Shown here: piece by piece, positions 14,607-21,337 of the stretch
Layout: every line of letters starts with the position of its first letter
Position numbering within the stretch: position 1 is the stretch's first letter
Source: a virus
Lineage: Duplodnaviria > Caudoviricetes
Reading direction: 5' to 3' (one strand)
DNA length: 64,000 nt
Virus record (IMG/VR): IMGVR_UViG_3300025936_000002
Coordinates: 1 to 64,000 of that record
Translations under genes and position numbers: made by a program
The notes under the pieces: model-generated
What the model was told of the DNA's origin: nothing
What the model saw: the letters and a program-made list of their open reading frames with translations, nothing else
Databases searched by the model: none

Positions 14607-16043
14607 TCAGTAGGCCCGCTCGTCGGGTAGCACCACAAAATGGAATTGAGCCCCGTCGGCCTTGGTCTCTGAGGCTTTTACCTTGGCCGGGTCCATCGCC
14701 GCGACCAGATCGGCACGAGCCAAGACAACGTTTTCATCCTGGTGCATACGCACGAGTTCGCGCTTGAAGTCATTCAATGAAATGTCGATTGTTTTGGGGA
14801 GATGGCGATAGACGTCGGAGATGAATGCTTTGTACCCGAAACGGTCACGTTTAGGCACCATCGCTGCAGCTCGTTCAACGATGAACGTGGCGCCTGGCGG
14901 CAGGCTTGTTGTTGTTGCACCGAGGCCGCCTCTGGACCAACACCGCGCGGTCCCTTTCTTGTCGAGGCCGGATTTGCAAGGGGCTACTCGGTAGCCCGAG
15001 CGGATGAGTTCGTTCGTAGAGCCGCCCCAGCGCTTGCCATCGACAACCTCTACTGTCCCAAGGGAACCCTGGGCGCGGAGCGATCGCCGCAACCATCGTG
15101 CTCCTGCGCGGTAACGCTTGGCGTTGAGGCGTTTATTGCTGCTGGCTTGGCCAGCCTTTTGTCGAACAAGCAACGCAAGCGCATGGTGCTCATCCGTCCA
15201 CAACGGATACCCCATGCGTCGAGCGACATCATCGATAGTTGTCGGCTCGTCGGCGTCGAGCGCATCAGCCGTTTTATCGAGTATTTCTGCGGCCTGCTCA
15301 AAACGCTGAGTTTCGCGGCGTTCGTATGCCGTCCCGGGCTTGGCGAAAACCCCAGGTCGCGGAACACCCGCAAGCCCTCGGTGCTTGCTCTTGACATGTG
15401 TGTAGACCAGGGCGACGCCGACCACGACCATCATTCCGATCGCGACGCCCATCCAGGACTTTAGGGGTCCTGCCGAGAGCAGCGCATCGGCCATGTTCAA
15501 GGCCAGGAGCCGCGCCGAGGTCGGCGTATAGTGAATGCCGTCCGGGCCAGGGGCGATCATGGTCGAGATCGGCCGCCCGTCGATGAACCGCCAGCCAAAC
15601 AAATTTTTAAGGGTTCCTGCGACCACGTCCACCTGGGGGGTAGGTAGGCGATTCGTGAACGGTCCGATCGCCCACAACTCGGCGCCGGCATTCTTGTACA
15701 TCCCCACGAGCCGTTGGAACGCCTCGGCGTCGGGGGCCGCAGCCAACCCTACATCGTTCGTTCCCAAGACGAAGATGATCTTGGTCGGCCGCCAAGCTAG
15801 ATCGTCTTGGATCAACTGTTGCGCCGGCTCTCGAGACCAGAAGTTGTAGGCCGATCGCGAGACGAGCGCATTCGTCCGCACAGCCGCCGCGCCTTGCTCG
15901 AGGAGCAAGCTGGCGAGCAGATCGCCGGGCGCCGAACTTGAACGGTTCGAGCCTGCATTCACATCCCAGACGGGGTTTCCTCCGCTGGCATGCTGCGTCA
16001 AGCTGTCACCGAAGATCAGGATCCGCTCGCCTCGGGCGTTCAT
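14607..16043 (-). CDS. SGNH hydrolase + TM + basic/helical C-terminal domains (multidomain, possibly processed)
   Basis: IFGDSL, GTND and DGIH blocks (S-G-N-H), then a TM helix and segments delimited by GLAG, GSLG and GGLG. Confidence 0.75.
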   Translation of the reverse strand: MNARGERILIFGDSLTQHASGGNPVWDVNAGSNRSSSAPGDLLASLLLEQGAAAVRTNALVSRSAYNFWSREPAQQLIQDDLAWRPTKIIFVLGTNDVGLAAAPDAEAFQRLVGMYKNAGAELWAIGPFTNRLPTPQVDVVAGTLKNLFGWRFIDGRPISTMIAPGPDGIHYTPTSARLLALNMADALLSAGPLKSWMGVAIGMMVVVGVALVYTHVKSKHRGLAGVPRPGVFAKPGTAYERRETQRFEQAAEILDKTADALDADEPTTIDDVARRMGYPLWTDEHHALALLVRQKAGQASSNKRLNAKRYRAGARWLRRSLRAQGSLGTVEVVDGKRWGGSTNELIRSGYRVAPCKSGLDKKGTARCWSRGGLGATTTSLPPGATFIVERAAAMVPKRDRFGYKAFISDVYRHLPKTIDISLNDFKRELVRMHQDENVVLARADLVAAMDPAKVKASETKADGAQFHFVVLPDERAY

Positions 16044-16129
16044 AGCTTGGCTAGGATACAGCGAGCAGCGCGCTGCGACCAAACCTAGGACGAGGACTGT
16101 TTTAGGCCACAGGCGGATTATGGCACTGC

Positions 16130-16174
16130 ACGTTTCGTCTTGTCTCGCCTCGGATCGAATCGTATCGCATCGTT
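16130..16174 (-). repeat. Pentamer array 1 (NN-CGA units; candidate guide ncRNA)
   Basis: Plus strand acgtt tcgtc ttgtc tcgcc tcgga tcgaa tcgta tcgca tcgtt: 9 in-phase units, with more degenerate units to about 16195. Intergenic. Confidence 0.75.
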
Positions 16175-16408
16175 ATCCTCACGGTTCGGATTCGTCAAAG
16201 TTGACGATGAAGCCTTCCTGGATGAACTCGGCCGCGCAGCTGGCGCAGACGCGACAACCGCCGTCCGAAACCGTACCGATCGCAGGCTCGTAGCAGTGGA
16301 CGTCGCGGTAATCCTCGGCGTCGCCGGCATCGCCGCCTTCTACCAAAAAACGCCCGGACCTCGATCGTTTCGCAGCGGCCCTCGCGGGGTGGCGCGGGCA
16401 GCATTTGC

Positions 16409-16678
16409 CTACTCGTCCGAGTCGGCGTCCTCGTCCTCGTCGGAGGCTTCCGCTGCACGGGCCTCCTTGAGGGCGGCGAGAACCTCGCGGCCATTCATCA
16501 CCTTGACCTTGAGGGCATCGAGGACGATGTCTCTGGCCGCCGTGGTGACCTCCTTTACGGAGGGCTTGTCGCTGAGGGCGATGTTGGTCGGATCGAGCTT
16601 GATCGTGGCACCGGTGACACCATCGGCGCGGGGGAGGGTGATTTCGACTTCGACAGACACGGTTTTGTTCTTGGGCAT
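16409..16678 (-). CDS. Hypothetical protein with acidic tail
   Basis: AGGAGA RBS, strong GC3 bias, ends DEDEDADSDE. Confidence 0.7.
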   Translation of the reverse strand: MPKNKTVSVEVEITLPRADGVTGATIKLDPTNIALSDKPSVKEVTTAARDIVLDALKVKVMNGREVLAALKEARAAEASDEDEDADSDE

Positions 16679-16719
16679 CGTTCATCTCCTTACTGCATTC
16701 GGGTGACAGGTTTGGTTGT

Positions 16720-17202
16720 TTAGTCGTGGTCGCAGGCGGAGGTCGCCCACTTACCCTCTGGGAGGATACGTACGACGATGTGATCGCCGAAAGCTTGGCA
16801 CATGAAATAGTCGAAAGCGGCGGGTTCACTGGTGACGTAATCGCGCTTGTCGCCACCGGCCTGCTCGACGAGATCTTTCCAAGCTTTGGCGAGCACTCTG
16901 ATCTGAGCTTGGGTGCAACCGTCTAGGTTGGCGTTGTTACCCAAAAACTCTATTGCGAGGCCTTGCTCCTCCAGATCGTATAGCGATTCGTTGATATCGG
17001 CCTTTGTCGATACCAGGTATGGATCGCGTACGCCGAATATGCATGGATCGCCATCGTTGAAATACGGAGTATATTGCTTCCAACGCAGCTCGAATCCCTC
17101 GGGCAGAACCGCCTTGAAATGGTTGGTGACTTCTTGAGCCGCTTCGGCTTTGATTTGTTCCCGAGCCCGTTTGATGTTGTCTAGCATCGTCTTTAGAGCC
17201 AT
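16720..17202 (-). CDS. Hypothetical phage protein (usual neighbour of DUF6915)
   Basis: WKQYTPYFNDGDPCIF and FGDH motifs, recognised from the gene pair with DUF6915. Confidence 0.65.
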   Translation of the reverse strand: MALKTMLDNIKRAREQIKAEAAQEVTNHFKAVLPEGFELRWKQYTPYFNDGDPCIFGVRDPYLVSTKADINESLYDLEEQGLAIEFLGNNANLDGCTQAQIRVLAKAWKDLVEQAGGDKRDYVTSEPAAFDYFMCQAFGDHIVVRILPEGKWATSACDHD

Positions 17203-17205
17203 AGA

Positions 17206-17694
17206 CTAATCTTCTCCTGTGGATATGGGTTGGATGTTGTGGATTGCGGCCATAAGCACATCGCGCTCGCTACGTGTTGTGGTGTGGCCGAGACGCTCTA
17301 GTGCTTTGTGCAGGCGTTGATCGAGATGCTCGCGCACCTCGGCAGGTGTTGGTGGACGTTGATCCTTGGGGATCCTGTGGATACCGCCATGCCATGTTTG
17401 TTGTGGCAACTCCTCAAGCCAGTCTTCTAGGCTTGGGATGAATCCAAGATCTTCGATGATGTGCTGTTCAGCGATATCTCTCGTCGAGACTTCGCGTCCA
17501 TCGCTATTGATCAACGTCCGACCGAACACCCGCTCGACTGTGAAGCAACCAAGTGCATGATGGTGCGCCGCTCGATGTCTGAGATCGGGCATCGCGGCTT
17601 TGCTGCCATCGATGAAGTCATGGATTGCAATGTAGTCATCAGGCTTTCCGCCCCAACGAGCTACCGACCCTTTGGCGTGTTGGAAGGGCTTCAT
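17206..17694 (-). CDS. DUF6915-like protein
   Basis: HAKGSVARWGGKPDDYIAIHDFIDGSK, HRAAHHH and IAEQHIIEDLGFIPS. Confidence 0.7.
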   Translation of the reverse strand: MKPFQHAKGSVARWGGKPDDYIAIHDFIDGSKAAMPDLRHRAAHHHALGCFTVERVFGRTLINSDGREVSTRDIAEQHIIEDLGFIPSLEDWLEELPQQTWHGGIHRIPKDQRPPTPAEVREHLDQRLHKALERLGHTTTRSERDVLMAAIHNIQPISTGED

Positions 17695-17712
17695 TTGTTT
17701 GCGAGGATCGAA

Positions 17713-18108
17713 TCAGCGATCGCGATCGGCGAGATAGCTTTCGACCGTCGCGTAGCCCTGTTGAGCTGCAACGGCGGCATCGTCCGGGCGGCCGAGTACG
17801 ATGGCTTTCAGCTCGTGGCTCTGCGCGTATTTATATACGTTACACAGCATCTTGTGTGTCTTGACGTTTGTGAAGTCAACGCCATCTTCAACCCATTTCG
17901 TGTTGATTCCGACAGCAATAAGCCACCAATAGAAACCATCGCTATCGGGGTTCGGTTGGGACATGCGCTCGATCAACCCGTCTAGTTGGGCCAACTGCGT
18001 GCGGACTGCAGCGACGGTAGGTAGAGGGGAATCCTCGATGCGGCTCAATGCTGCAATCGTCTGCCGCACGGCGCTCAGCTCTCTTACGATGTCATTGTGA
18101 AAGGCCAT
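17713..18108 (-). CDS. Hypothetical protein
   Basis: Start moved to ATG 18108 (MAFHND); the track's upstream extension is pentamer array 2. Confidence 0.55.
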   Translation of the reverse strand: MAFHNDIVRELSAVRQTIAALSRIEDSPLPTVAAVRTQLAQLDGLIERMSQPNPDSDGFYWWLIAVGINTKWVEDGVDFTNVKTHKMLCNVYKYAQSHELKAIVLGRPDDAAVAAQQGYATVESYLADRDR

Positions 18109-18120
18109 TGTTTTCCAATC

Positions 18121-18200
18121 TCGCTTCGTTACGTATCGGTTAGCGACGTCTCGTCTCGTGGCGATTCGGTTAGAGTTGATTCGTCTCATCTCGAATCGGC
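18121..18200 (-). repeat. Pentamer array 2 (16 NN-CGA units; candidate guide ncRNA)
   Basis: Plus strand tcgct tcgtt acgta tcggt tagcg acgtc tcgtc tcgtg gcgat tcggt tagag ttgat tcgtc tcatc tcgaa tcggc; 13 nt downstream of the RAMP-like stop. Confidence 0.85.
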
Positions 18201-18213
18201 GACGGTAAAAAAT

Positions 18214-18798
18214 TTAGCTCATCTGGATGTTGATGAGCTTGAAGCGGCCGTAGAATCCGCCGTTGGCCGGGCGGAAGCGGCCGAGCCCTACGAAGGTGCC
18301 GGCATCCTCGAAGGCCTTGGCTAGCACGTCGCGATTGATGACCTCGTCCAAGACGTAGATCGTCGAGGTTGCACGCCACGGATTCAAAATCCGGGGCATG
18401 CAGCGCTTGACGCGGGTCCCGCCGGGCTTGCCGTTGGCGTCGAGGAACAGCCATTCACCCTCGAAATCGTCGAGGGTGGCCGGGCGCCATCCGTTCTTGT
18501 CGTTCGACTTGAACAGCGGAAGCTCGTCGGTGATCAGGATCCCCGACTTGAAGCGCTTGGTGTAGGTAGCATTGCGCTCGCCCGGGATCTTCCCGAGGTA
18601 GGACGACGCCGACTCGAGGCACTTCTTGAGCATCATCGGTGGAATGAACGGAGCGCCTGCGGCGTTGACGTGGATCCGTTGCCTCCACGTCCGCTTCTCG
18701 AGTTCGTCGGCGGTCTCCTTGCCCTCGCGCTGCGGATCGTAGAATCGCGATGGGCTATGTGGACTGATTCCCTCGATCGTCACATTGGCTGTCTTCAT
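18214..18798 (-). CDS. Stand-alone Cas7/RAMP-like protein
   Basis: N-terminal strand NVTIEGISP, PFIPPMMLKKCL helix, and C-terminal G-rich loop FVGLGRFRPANGGFYGRF followed by a final beta strand. This is the RAMP motif order. Confidence 0.72.
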   Translation of the reverse strand: MKTANVTIEGISPHSPSRFYDPQREGKETADELEKRTWRQRIHVNAAGAPFIPPMMLKKCLESASSYLGKIPGERNATYTKRFKSGILITDELPLFKSNDKNGWRPATLDDFEGEWLFLDANGKPGGTRVKRCMPRILNPWRATSTIYVLDEVINRDVLAKAFEDAGTFVGLGRFRPANGGFYGRFKLINIQMS

Positions 18799-18811
18799 TT
18801 GTAGTTACCTC

Positions 18812-18871
18812 TCGTTACAACTTGTATCGGCTTGGTTAGCTTCGTTACGTGTTGATTCGGCTCGTGTCGGG
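18812..18871 (-). repeat. Pentamer array 3 (12 NN-CGA units)
   Basis: Plus strand tcgtt acaac ttgta tcggc ttggt tagct tcgtt acgtg ttgat tcggc tcgtg tcggg; directly upstream of the RAMP-like RBS. Confidence 0.82.
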
Positions 18872-18891
18872 AAAGACTACTTCTCGCTGAG

Positions 18892-19395
18892 CTACTTCTC
18901 GCTGAGCGCTTCGAGGGTGGTTCCGAGTTCCAAACGTGAGTTGGCAACCTCGACGGCTCCACGGATCTTGCGTTCGGCCTTCGGCGTCGCGAGATGGTGG
19001 AGCGTTCCAACGACGGCAAGCTTGGTGTTGTACTCCACCTGCTCTGCCGGCTGCAAGGCATTGTAGTTCTTGACGCCGTAGACCAAGGCGGCGGCGGCTT
19101 TCTTGGTCTCGCGGCGGACGTGCTTGATCGTTCGATCTGCAACCGTAGGTACTGCAGCATCGGCGACGTGACGCCACCCTTGGTTGCGTTCGCGGACGAT
19201 CAAGATTTTGTGCTCCTTCAGGAGCACGTTCTTGACCGTCCGCATGTATTTGTACCATACAGCTCGTTGCGCTTTGGTGGCCTGATCGATCTGTTCATCG
19301 GTAATGAGGCCGCCTACGGGCACAGCTTTGATCAACTCGACGATGGAGTTGGTGTAGGCATGTCGATTTCCATGTATTAGCAGTTCTGTCGTCAT
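18892..19395 (-). CDS. Partner protein of the RAMP-like gene (helical, possible winged helix)
   Basis: 167-aa ORF flanked by arrays. KILIVRERNQGWR resembles a wing; the C-terminus is helical. Confidence 0.65.
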   Translation of the reverse strand: MTTELLIHGNRHAYTNSIVELIKAVPVGGLITDEQIDQATKAQRAVWYKYMRTVKNVLLKEHKILIVRERNQGWRHVADAAVPTVADRTIKHVRRETKKAAAALVYGVKNYNALQPAEQVEYNTKLAVVGTLHHLATPKAERKIRGAVEVANSRLELGTTLEALSEK

Positions 19396-19410
19396 CGTTT
19401 AAATGGCCTT

Positions 19411-19475
19411 TCGTTACGTTGTGGCTCGCCTCGTTTCGACACGCTTCGGGCCGCATCAGCTCATCTCGTGGCGAT
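19411..19475 (-). repeat. Pentamer array 4 (13 NN-CGA units)
   Basis: Plus strand tcgtt acgtt gtggc tcgcc tcgtt tcgac acgct tcggg ccgca tcagc tcatc tcgtg gcgat. Confidence 0.82.
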
Positions 19476-19489
19476 TAATGGTCTGCTAC

Positions 19490-19650
19490 TGCTGAAGCCT
19501 AGTGGATGTACTAACCAGATCGGCTACTAGGATGCTACTAGGATGCACCGTGGTTGGTCCAGCTGAGCGCTGCAGGAGTGCCCCTGGATCTAGTGGTGGC
19601 CCAGATCGCGTTTTCGACAGATTGGTTAATACATCCACTACGCATCAGCA
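19490..19650. repeat. 28-bp imperfect inverted repeat enclosing 105 nt
   Basis: 19490-19517 tgctgaagcctagtggatgtactaacca against the reverse complement of 19623-19650, tgctgatgcgtagtggatgtattaacca: 25/28 identical. Confidence 0.8.
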
Positions 19651-19655
19651 TCCTT

Positions 19656-19746
19656 TCGTTACGTTACGATGCGCCTCGCCTCGTATCGACTTGTTTCAAG
19701 TCGGCACAAATCGACTTGTTTTCGCTTCGATTCGCATCGGCTCGCT
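19656..19746 (-). repeat. Pentamer array 5 (18 NN-CGA units, one 1-nt phase slip)
   Basis: Plus strand tcgtt acgtt acgat gcgcc tcgcc tcgta tcgac ttgtt tcaag tcggc acaaa tcgac ttgtt t tcgct tcgat tcgca tcggc tcgct; 18 nt downstream of the recombinase stop. Confidence 0.85.
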
Positions 19747-19764
19747 AACCACAAACAACCTACG

Positions 19765-20736
19765 CTAGCGGTCTGACATTCGTCGATGGACCAGATCGGC
19801 CAACCAAGGTGGCGTCGAGTTGCGGACCCGGCCGCCGATCTCTCGGGCATCCATGTAGCCGCCGAGGGCGCCAAGCTTGCCCAAGCTGTGATGGGTGATC
19901 GCTGCGATCTCTTGGGGCTTTTGGCCCATCGCCTCGCGCCAGGTCACGAACGTATGGCGAAGCAGGTGGGGGTTGATGTGTCGGAGGCCGGCGAGCTTGG
20001 ATCGCTCTGAGAAGATCTTGGCAACTCCAGACATCGATAGCACTTTGTCAGTCGGCCTAAACGGGGTTGAACTGATGGCAGATCGCCGCAGAGGACAAAA
20101 CACCGGACCCGTTAGCTGCTGATATCGATCAAGAACAAGCAACCATTGGTTTAAGGCTACGAGCGAAATATCTGAGAGGGGTACCCAATCTGGATCTCTA
20201 CCTTTGAGCGGCACAAAGGCAGCTGGATAAGGCCAGGGGCCCAGAGCGTTCAGAGTTAGACCTTCGCTGCGTATCCCCAGCAGCGACATGCAGCGCATGC
20301 CGGTCTCGAGGCCGACGACGATCAGCGCAAAATCACGGATGCCAGCGTAGCTGTGATCGCAAGTATCGAGGAGCGCTCGGGCCGAAGCCTCGTCGAGGGC
20401 CAGCTGCGGTTTTCGATCTTTGGCCTTGGCTGTAGCCACCCGAGCGAAGTCCAGATCGTCGTTGTTCTCGTAGTGGGCAAACCATCGACTGGCGTAGCCA
20501 ACGGACTGCATCAGGCGATTGGCGCTCTGAGGTTTCATCCGCTTGAGGAGCTCGTCGTAGAACACGGCGGCGGCCTTGCGGGTCCAGTTGATCGGGTTGC
20601 TACCGACGAAGGCAATCCACTGATCCAGATCGCGGAGATAACGGCTCTTGGTCGTCTCGGCGATGTTGTGCGCCGAGATCACGATCTCGTGCAGCTTGCT
20701 TTGGGGGACGGGGGGGCTATTGCCAGGCGATTTCAT
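19765..20736 (-). CDS. Tyrosine recombinase/integrase
   Basis: RDFALIVVGLETGMR (Arg I), PHLLRHTF (HxxR), ITHHS (His) and GGY (Tyr); N-terminal SAM-like domain TKSRYLRDLDQW. Confidence 0.88.
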   Translation of the reverse strand: MKSPGNSPPVPQSKLHEIVISAHNIAETTKSRYLRDLDQWIAFVGSNPINWTRKAAAVFYDELLKRMKPQSANRLMQSVGYASRWFAHYENNDDLDFARVATAKAKDRKPQLALDEASARALLDTCDHSYAGIRDFALIVVGLETGMRCMSLLGIRSEGLTLNALGPWPYPAAFVPLKGRDPDWVPLSDISLVALNQWLLVLDRYQQLTGPVFCPLRRSAISSTPFRPTDKVLSMSGVAKIFSERSKLAGLRHINPHLLRHTFVTWREAMGQKPQEIAAITHHSLGKLGALGGYMDAREIGGRVRNSTPPWLADLVHRRMSDR

Positions 20737-21337
20737 CGAGCTTCTTCCGCGCGCGTTCGCCAAGCGGCAAAAATTCGATTGCCTCGGTCAGTAGTATCCA
20801 TGGTAGTTCCTTTGAGATCCGACCGGAATCAGGTCCGATGGTAGCTACCTCGTGAAGCGTATTAGCGCCATTCCATGACCAAATGCGCTTAGCGGCGGTC
20901 AAAATGGCCTCTTTGCCGTCTCGACGAAACAGGCGGCCATAGTGAATCCCAGCAGAGTAGGTACGGACTACAACCCATTCGCCGATGTCTTGTTCGATGC
21001 TTGAAATAGAAACCACGCTAGTCTCCTTATTTGTTAGATCCCCGTCCCCGGACCCGGACCCGTACCCGGACCCGGACCCGTCCCCGTCCCCGTCCCCGTA
21101 CCCGGACCCGGACCCGGACCCGTACCCGGACCCGGACCCGTCCCCGTCCCCGTCCCCGGACCCGTCCCCGTACAGAAAACCTGCAAGCGATGGCGCCCGC
21201 CAAAAGGCGGCCCCTTGATCTCCGGCCCCTTCGTACCAATCGGCGGTTGTTGCTCGTGCGTCCAGCGAGTCGACCGACTCAGCAAGCAATGCGGCTAAAC
21301 GCACAGTGGATTCATCCCCGCCATGATAGCAACCCAC
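20717..21337 (-). CDS. G/S/D/Y low-complexity linker + DUF6948-like domain (start uncertain)
   Basis: GDGSGSGYG repeats, then VVVRTYSAGIHYGRL...AKRIWSWNGANTLHEVA. Confidence 0.65.
   Translation of the reverse strand: MGCYHGGDESTVRLAALLAESVDSLDARATTADWYEGAGDQGAAFWRAPSLAGFLYGDGSGDGDGDGSGSGYGSGSGSGYGDGDGDGSGSGYGSGSGDGDLTNKETSVVSISSIEQDIGEWVVVRTYSAGIHYGRLFRRDGKEAILTAAKRIWSWNGANTLHEVATIGPDSGRISKELPWILLTEAIEFLPLGERARKKLDEIAWQ
21042..21172. repeat. Hexamer tandem repeat (cccgga/cccgtc/cccgta) with 60-bp higher-order duplication
   Basis: Lines 21061 and 21121 start with the same 38 nt; encodes alternating Gly-X. Confidence 0.9.

Follow-up and report, generated by a model that had tools for sequence, protein, structure and literature searches.

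Systems of the Viral Interference Programmable Repeat (VIPR) kind were described only in 2026 and are in development as a minimal programmable DNA-binding platform; they have been proposed as the ancestor of CRISPR RAMP proteins. According to two preprints (bioRxiv 10.64898/2026.04.26.720920 and.720927), such a system comprises an ancestral RAMP protein of ~20 kDa (Vipr), an accessory vap gene and guide RNAs (vrRNAs) in which a 3′ tail comes after 9–16 YNNGG repeats. Each repeat is bound by one Vipr protomer, which buries the GGY triplet; the NN dinucleotide pairs with double-stranded DNA, and one base is skipped per unit, usually the wobble base of a codon. Natural targets are competing phages and satellites, and experiments have shown Vipr homologues to act on DNA in trans. 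The methods of 10.64898/2026.04.26.720920 also mention NNNGG, YNNNG and NNNNG as alternative repeats, and a preprint of October 2026 (10.64898/2026.10.21.760802) reports 21 clusters of Vipr-associated arrays, with non-canonical triplets such as GAC, CAC, WGT and TGH. The locus analysed here lies in a 64,000-nucleotide stretch of viral DNA (IMG/VR record IMGVR_UViG_3300025936_000002, positions 1 to 64,000; Duplodnaviria, Caudoviricetes; hereafter the window), in which an initial annotation, made from the letters alone, had noted a stand-alone Cas7/RAMP-like gene among arrays of CGA-NN pentamers. The record is a complete virus genome of 85,269 bp with direct terminal repeats. The locus is very probably a VIPR system, made up of a vap-like winged-helix gene, vipr and six guide-RNA (vrRNA) genes, and all of it lies in a lysogeny-side operon beside an integrase, on the minus strand. 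The ‘Vipr’ proteins that the initial annotation had mentioned are those of the first two preprints, which describe the model that it had inferred, with one protomer per pentamer, a triplet handle and a gapped NN guide; the novelty that it had implied did not hold, VIPR and VIPR arrays with non-canonical triplets being already published.

The 194-aa product of vipr ends, as had been noted, in a glycine-rich loop, GLGRFRPANGGFYGRF. Homologues of equal length numbered more than 340, from metagenomes and a few genomes, and none of them was named. A profile of 33 homologues was matched to the SUSP1 Vipr chain 36pp_D with an E-value of 9.1e-9, the one solved structure matched; the match spanned profile positions 80–182, from the thumb to the C-terminus, with GxGRFRP aligned to GVGDWRP, and in the single-sequence search 36pp_D was already the top match (E 0.21). 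The AlphaFold model (AF2, pLDDT 93.6) contained a long β-hairpin at 112–137 and a glycine-rich loop between the last helix and the last strand. The top Foldseek matches among solved structures were all Cas7-family backbone subunits (Csm3, Cmr4 and type VII Cas7; E ~1e-6, Foldseek probability 1.00). The family profile and the modelled fold show the product to be a Vipr-family RAMP protein with a predicted Cas7-type fold, in keeping with the Cas7/RAMP-like assignment made initially; its predicted layout is an RRM core, a β-hairpin thumb at ~112–137 and a G-loop at 171–185 (GLGRFRPANGGFYGR). Neither this protein nor the vap-like protein was matched in the Pfam, NCBI-style or PADLOC libraries, and PHROGs gave only families of unknown function. 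In a tblastn search, homologues in cultured phages were limited to hypothetical proteins of Pseudomonas phage vB_Pae_LESphi2 (29% identity) and Gordonia phage MakoManhole (30%).

All genes between 14.6 and 20.8 kb are on the minus strand, and read on that strand the intergenic stretches are runs of 5-nt CGA-NN units. Arrays were scored by plus-strand TCG, which is CGA on the coding strand, in 5-nt phase, with a cut-off of at least 4 of 8 units. Phased runs were obtained at 16120–16194, 18116–18205, 18827–18881, 19401–19470 and 19651–19766, together with one borderline site, 16588, inside coding sequence; there were no others in the window or in the remainder of the 85,269-bp genome. The five array sites of the initial annotation, and their absence elsewhere, were borne out, except that the integrase-side array (19654–19744) is really two sub-arrays of 5 and 13 units, split by a 1-nt phase slip, so that six arrays are distinguished (A5a, A5b, A4, A3, A2 and A1; table 1). 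The real sequence reached a maximum of 7 of 8 phased units, and 13 scan windows held at least 5. Of 200 sequences simulated by a first-order Markov model on its dinucleotide statistics, 197 had a maximum of 3–4, and the mean number of scan windows with at least 5 was 0.025; a chance repeat was ruled out on the grounds that the simulations nearly never attained the observed phased counts. Among 61 automatically phased units, C was present at position 1 in 54 (89%), G at position 2 in 49 (80%) and A at position 3 in 46 (75%), and positions 4 and 5 were near-uniform. The 3′ ends of four arrays carried conserved CGTAA CGA(A/G)(A/G) units, followed directly by GG in three of these. A search of 15500–20500 against Rfam gave no match, hence no hammerhead or other known RNA between the arrays, and the only terminator-like signal was the hairpin after vipr.

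Three further features were observed around the arrays. Between A5 and A4 (19480–19640), ~160 nt form a long imperfect hairpin (RNA minimum free energy −71.4 kcal mol−1, z −4.26) that holds a tandem GCTACTAGGAT ×2, is unique in the genome, has no Rfam match and is missing from the related contig L100 described below; it could represent a structured RNA, an inserted element, or an attP or operator region by the integrase. At 18877–18907, a short way upstream of A3, 15 nt (CTACTTCTCGCTGAG) are exactly duplicated in tandem across the vap-like gene's stop codon. A possible Cys-rich (CxxC) small open reading frame of ~55 aa (16184–16350, minus strand), which the list of frames with a 60-aa limit does not give in the correct frame, ends immediately before A1, which itself sits 2 kb downstream of the core locus.

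Relatives were examined as 100 fetched loci encoding Vipr homologues. Flanking pentamer arrays, for which the initial annotation had proposed checking homologues of the gene, were present in 95 of the 100, each with at least one strongly 5-nt-phased array within 2.5 kb of vipr. Counts on the vipr strand were 165 for GGC and 7 for GCC, which shows that arrays are co-oriented with vipr, and it follows that the transcribed strand in the window is the minus strand. In L094 and L096 each array ended at its 3′ side (vipr orientation) in conserved repeats and a small GCCC...GGGC hairpin, which matches the published layout of repeats followed by a tail. By falling frequency the family triplets were GGC, CGC, GAC and GTC, with GGT, GTT, CGT and CAC rarer, so that GAC, GTC, CGC, CAC, GGT and GTT arrays were all found within the window protein's own family. 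CGA was present in the window alone among the ~100 loci and is the sole triplet with a purine at core position 3. Triplets were clustered on the protein tree, none of 200 label shuffles requiring so few changes, and the second check proposed initially, for co-variation of triplet and protein clade, was thus also positive; the triplet has nonetheless changed many times across the tree. The window protein fell in a supported triad with L093 (CGT, 73–76% identity) and L094 (CGC, 70%), inside a ten-member CGN clade.

The contig L100, with nucleotide identities to the window of 91% in the integrase and 83.5% in the vap-like gene, carried CGA-NN arrays at the same two intergenic positions, and CGA is on this evidence a lineage property and not a one-off. 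Leader, first units, last units and ribosome-binding region were conserved between the two sets of arrays, the leader and first units of A5a among them, whereas interior NN strings and unit numbers were wholly different. Exchangeable guides would be expected to keep the CGA frame and to differ in NN, unlike a cis-regulatory leader or a DNA site bound by protein; the comparison shows that the arrays behave as exchangeable cassettes between relatives.

The residues with which the triplet changes were sought with the core triplet numbered from 1 to 3. In loci with Tyr14 (n=62; motif SPYSQS after strand β-1) C made up a median fraction of 0.85 at core position 3, and all six loci without Tyr14, which represent about five independent lineages, deviated at this position. 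T was found at 0.73 in L093 (Phe14/Met16), at 0.82 in L042 (Ile14/Phe16) and at 0.91 in L054 (Leu14/Met16); C and T were mixed in L025 and L068 (both Leu14/Phe16); and A was found at 0.75 in the window, where Vipr has His14/Pro16 in place of the Tyr14/Gln16 of the family. L101 (Tyr14/Pro16) retained C despite Pro16, so Pro16 alone is insufficient, which points to residue 14. At core position 1, G or C co-varied with residue 134 (Phe as against Met or Tyr), which is aligned to thumb residue Arg138 of SUSP1 Vipr, and also with residues 120, 119 and 59; the signal at this position is partly shared ancestry.

This covariation between protein residues and triplet appears to be new, since it is in the text of neither 10.64898/2026.04.26.720920 nor 10.64898/2026.10.21.760802, figures aside, and within the same limits neither text names CGA or CGC. 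Single-base changes of the guide handle (CGC, CGT, CGA) evidently occur between proteins that retain 70–76% identity; a purine is tolerated where the solved SUSP1 complex restricts the position to pyrimidines, and the triplet changes track one or two protein residues in about five independent lineages. A fuller reading is offered tentatively, at somewhat less than even confidence: that the scaffold triplet is set by very few residues (14 with 16, in the loop that follows strand β-1, for position 3; 134, 120, 119 and 59 for position 1), that the His14/Pro16 Vipr accepts CGA and is orthogonal to GGY Viprs, that the rapid drift from CGC through CGT to CGA within one clade was an arms-race response that prevents solo or decoy vrRNAs of rivals from being loaded, and that a tail-less virus uses VIPR against the packaging gene of a tailed phage. 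The covariation offers a testable specificity code and candidate orthogonal protein–scaffold pairs and, if true, a simple route to orthogonal, multiplexable VIPR tools. Three points are added here to the published systems and are worth testing: the CGA (purine) scaffold, the code at residues 14 and 16, and the prediction that a virus without the packaging genes of tailed phages targets a terminase.

For guide targets, exact 1-nt-skip patterns of 9–11 units were scanned against IMG/VR. Five window arrays and two guides of relatives, one each from L100 and L094, gave one match overall: at 485–516 of L102, the first 11 units of A2 (18144–18198) agreed in 22 of 22 NN positions with a 1-nt skip. 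The site is inside an Sf6-type small-terminase gene, directly upstream of the large-terminase gene, on a 25.8-kb contig of 60% G+C that has no gene in common with the window virus. It is in frame, reading F-E-E-I-L-T-I-Q-D-E-R, and every skipped base is a wobble base. By a codon-aware estimate, 0.008–0.027 chance matches of the A2 pattern were expected in 3e10–1e11 bases; the same model predicted ~1–3 matches for less specific patterns, for which none was found, and is therefore no underestimate. A far larger set of metagenome contigs gave no match to the A2 pattern. On the sequence match, the small-terminase site is a good candidate target of A2, and the prediction lets the one-base-skip rule be probed outside GGY systems. 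No self-target was found in the 85-kb genome above shuffled controls at skips of 0–2. The three families Terminase_6C, HK97-capsid and portal were likewise without a match in this genome, so that a terminase guide could not hit its own virus, and the initial description of the virus as probably tail-less holds as far as these families go; VIPR is in this way extended to a large virus that lacks, among the families searched, the tailed-phage genes for head, portal and terminase. When 334 arrays were compared all-against-all with 848 kb of fetched loci, the known A2 match and one match of 19/20 were recovered and nothing else. The latter joins a GGC-type array (L011:3233–3302) to L026:3621, in a near-identical locus, with a 1-nt skip, and may be a VIPR guide aimed at a relative.

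The second protein of the locus was modelled with a pLDDT of 89.6, as a helix–strand–helix–helix–hairpin winged-helix topology followed by long helices. Foldseek matches were weak (MarR, FadR, ScpB, BirA and histone H1; E 0.05–0.25), as was a profile match to the MGMT winged helix (E 0.036), and all of these are winged-helix DNA binders. A winged-helix protein agrees with what has been published on the vap genes of types II, VI and VII. Homologues of the vap-like gene were beside vipr in at least 26 of the 100 loci, mostly downstream of it, and upstream in the triad that includes the window.

The closest described system is the type II VIPR of the Escherichia phage SUSP1 (Vipr, vap1 and GGY/NN vrRNAs). 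The two have in common a RAMP protein of ~20 kDa with a single RRM and a G-loop (profile E 9e-9), flanking pentamers that are repeated in tandem with fixed triplet and variable NN (9–16 units as published; 9–16 in the window, plus the 5-unit A5a), a small DNA-binding accessory gene, a viral location without cas genes or CRISPR array, and a candidate target in coding sequence at which the wobble base is the one skipped; the lack of self-targets is shared with the published VIPRs. They differ in the G-loop (GRFRP in the window, GDWRP in SUSP1), in Met134 at the place of SUSP1 Arg138, in the position of vap upstream of vipr, and in the absence from the window virus of a terminase, portal or HK97 capsid gene among the families searched. 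They differ also in layout, the window having single vrRNAs interleaved between consecutive genes and abutting their ribosome-binding sites, whereas SUSP1 has one upstream vrRNA and a downstream array. The triplet is a different one, as initially proposed: the canonical GGY scaffold (YNNGG) was not found in the window, the middle G alone being common. The CGA core fits the published NNNNG ‘alternative’ class and the published class of non-canonical triplets, and the arrays described in 10.64898/2026.10.21.760802 and the variants in 10.64898/2026.04.26.720920 are like those of the window in being 5-nt arrays with a fixed non-GGY triplet beside a Vipr-like fold.

Class 1 CRISPR Cas7 subunits (Csm3, Cmr4, type VII Cas7) provide the closest solved folds and resemble the predicted Vipr filament in mode of action: each subunit takes up an RNA step of fixed length, and a thumb periodically disrupts pairing. 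They differ in sequence (14–17% identity, TM score 0.4–0.57 to the window protein) and in period, which is 6 nt for Cas7 and 5 nt in the window. As the initial annotation had stated, no CRISPR repeat-spacer array and no Cas1 were found in the neighbourhood of the locus, and no PADLOC defence or Cas family was found among eight neighbouring proteins. A reading of the pentamers as a CRISPR array was dropped for want of a repeat-spacer array and Cas1, and the locus was not classed as a class 1 CRISPR-Cas effector, having a single RAMP gene and none of repeat-spacer array, Cas1 or PADLOC Cas match.

Several observations weigh against assignment of the locus to VIPR. In SUSP1 the fixed triplet is GGY, whereas CGA has C at position 1 and a purine at position 3; the position-3 pocket of SUSP1 Vipr sterically excludes purines according to the first two preprints, so that the window protein must hold A differently. 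The N-terminal 90 residues alone gave no sequence match to SUSP1 Vipr. About 25% of the 61 phased units depart from CGA. SUSP1 vrRNAs have a pseudoknot or hairpin tail, whereas after the window arrays none is evident and only the conserved terminal repeats were seen; these repeats (CGTAA CGAAA GG) overlap the ribosome-binding sites of the next genes. A sigma-70 promoter scan was at background, and no promoter was identifiable. Of six window guide patterns, only that of A2 matched a candidate target, and its last five units mismatch the L102 site; over 17 units, which include a weak GTCGC unit before the listed 16, the full-length identity is 25/34 (0.74), below the published cut-off of 0.8. 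No exact 1-nt-skip target in IMG/VR was found for A4, A3, A5b, A1, the L100 guide or the L094 guide, and the other window guides did not converge on the L102 contig, either at full length or in 8-unit windows.

Alternatively, the arrays would act in cis only, as Vipr-binding mRNA leaders that control translation or stability of the genes downstream in the manner of TRAP or CsrA operators, and not as DNA guides in trans. Four arrays end 9–11 nt before a start codon, where the last unit and GG make a Shine–Dalgarno-like GAAAGG or GAGAGG, and no structured tail was found at the window arrays. The trp RNA-binding attenuation protein (TRAP) binds 11 GAG/UAG triplets set 2–3 nt apart. The likeness is one of analogy only, in that an oligomeric protein recognises a fixed triplet every ~5 nt along an mRNA leader; TRAP is unrelated in fold, regulates in cis and has spacers without information. 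An operator needs no hypervariable NN, yet NN strings and unit numbers differ wholly in a relative with flanking genes 84–91% identical; a match of 22/22 in frame to a foreign gene is unexpected for an operator, and the published homologues act in trans. A purely cis-acting role is very improbable, although a cis effect could exist alongside the guide function. A relic is another alternative: in a decaying or inactive VIPR locus the arrays would be degenerate, and the shift to CGA would be lost constraint and not a new specificity, as the deviating quarter of units, the missing tail hairpin and the lack of an identifiable target for most guides would allow. The window protein retains every residue that is invariant in 33 aligned homologues, however; the CGA frame is kept, with many perfect units, in the independent relative L100; A at position 3 is non-random, at 75%; and internal repeat degeneracy is reported as normal for vrRNAs in 10.64898/2026.04.26.720920. 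Decay is accordingly considered very improbable.

A reading at the DNA level was also weighed, in which the winged-helix protein or the integrase would bind the pentamers as phased sites (iterons, arm-type sites or bending tracts) and the RAMP-like protein would be unrelated to them; it is very improbable. The locus does adjoin an integrase and encode a winged-helix protein, and 5 bp is half a helical turn; the arrays are nevertheless strand-asymmetric and co-oriented with vipr across ~95 loci with different neighbours, they track vipr and not the integrase, their triplet co-varies with Vipr residues, and the homologous arrays that have been published are RNAs bound by Vipr.

If the locus is a VIPR system, its operation can be outlined by extension from SUSP1. 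An operon starting at the integrase would be transcribed through the arrays, and Vipr protomers would polymerise on the transcripts, one per pentamer, burying CGA, exposing NN and protecting the repeat tracts. The resulting filament would read double-stranded DNA with one skipped base per unit, NN pairing with codon positions 1 and 2; on NNx-spaced DNA of rival viruses it would block transcription, with the winged-helix protein assisting, and the small terminase of a tailed phage is one candidate for a gene silenced in this way. As the covariation suggests, the scaffold triplet would have drifted from CGC through CGT to CGA with changes at Vipr residues 14 and 16, giving a scaffold specificity distinct from GGY, for which insulation from decoy or solo vrRNAs of rivals is a possible reason. 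With arrays placed singly before successive genes and their last units serving as ribosome-binding sites, Vipr loading might, speculatively, also reduce how strongly vap, vipr and the gene after them are translated.

Table 1. Genes, arrays and terminator-like signal of the locus, in minus-strand order; positions are those of the window.
Feature	Position	Strand	Description
tyrosine integrase	19765..20763	−	immediately upstream, same strand
array A5a	19720..19744	−	5 perfect CGA-NN units, directly after integrase stop codon
array A5b	19654..19718	−	13 CGA-NN units, phase shifted by 1 nt from A5a; end CGTAA CGTAA CGAAA GG
array A4	19409..19473	−	13 CGA-NN units; end CGTAA CGAAA GG; 11 nt before vap start codon
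vap-like accessory gene	18892..19395	−	167 aa; predicted N-terminal winged helix and C-terminal helical bundle; phrog_5926
array A3	18810..18869	−	12 CGA-NN units; last unit + GG = GAGAGG, 9 nt before vipr start codon
vipr	18214..18798	−	194-aa Vipr-family RAMP protein (family profile and predicted fold)
terminator-like hairpin and T-run	18216..18239	−	end of vipr, immediately before array A2
array A2	18119..18198	−	16 CGA-NN units between vipr terminator-like hairpin and 131-aa gene
array A1	16128..16172	−	9 CGA-NN units between small open reading frame and GDSL-lipase-like gene

An integrase also adjoins VIPR loci in several relatives, and the vipr–vap pair was found next to a tyrosine integrase again in distant relatives (L101 and the contigs of P0071 and P0073), which suggests that VIPR is commonly placed at the lysogeny end of temperate elements. 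The remaining neighbour genes showed no linkage to vipr in other loci. Among them, two genes downstream of vipr (17206–17694, minus strand), is a gene for a DUF6915/phrog_8143 protein (E 1e-43), which is kept in the contig of a 98%-identical relative (P0001) and is unlinked to vipr elsewhere. On the other side of the locus, the protein encoded at 20717–21337 (minus strand) carries a long low-complexity tract of Gly-Ser/Gly-Asp/Tyr, for which a 6-nt tandem repeat of 22 copies at 21041–21173 codes.

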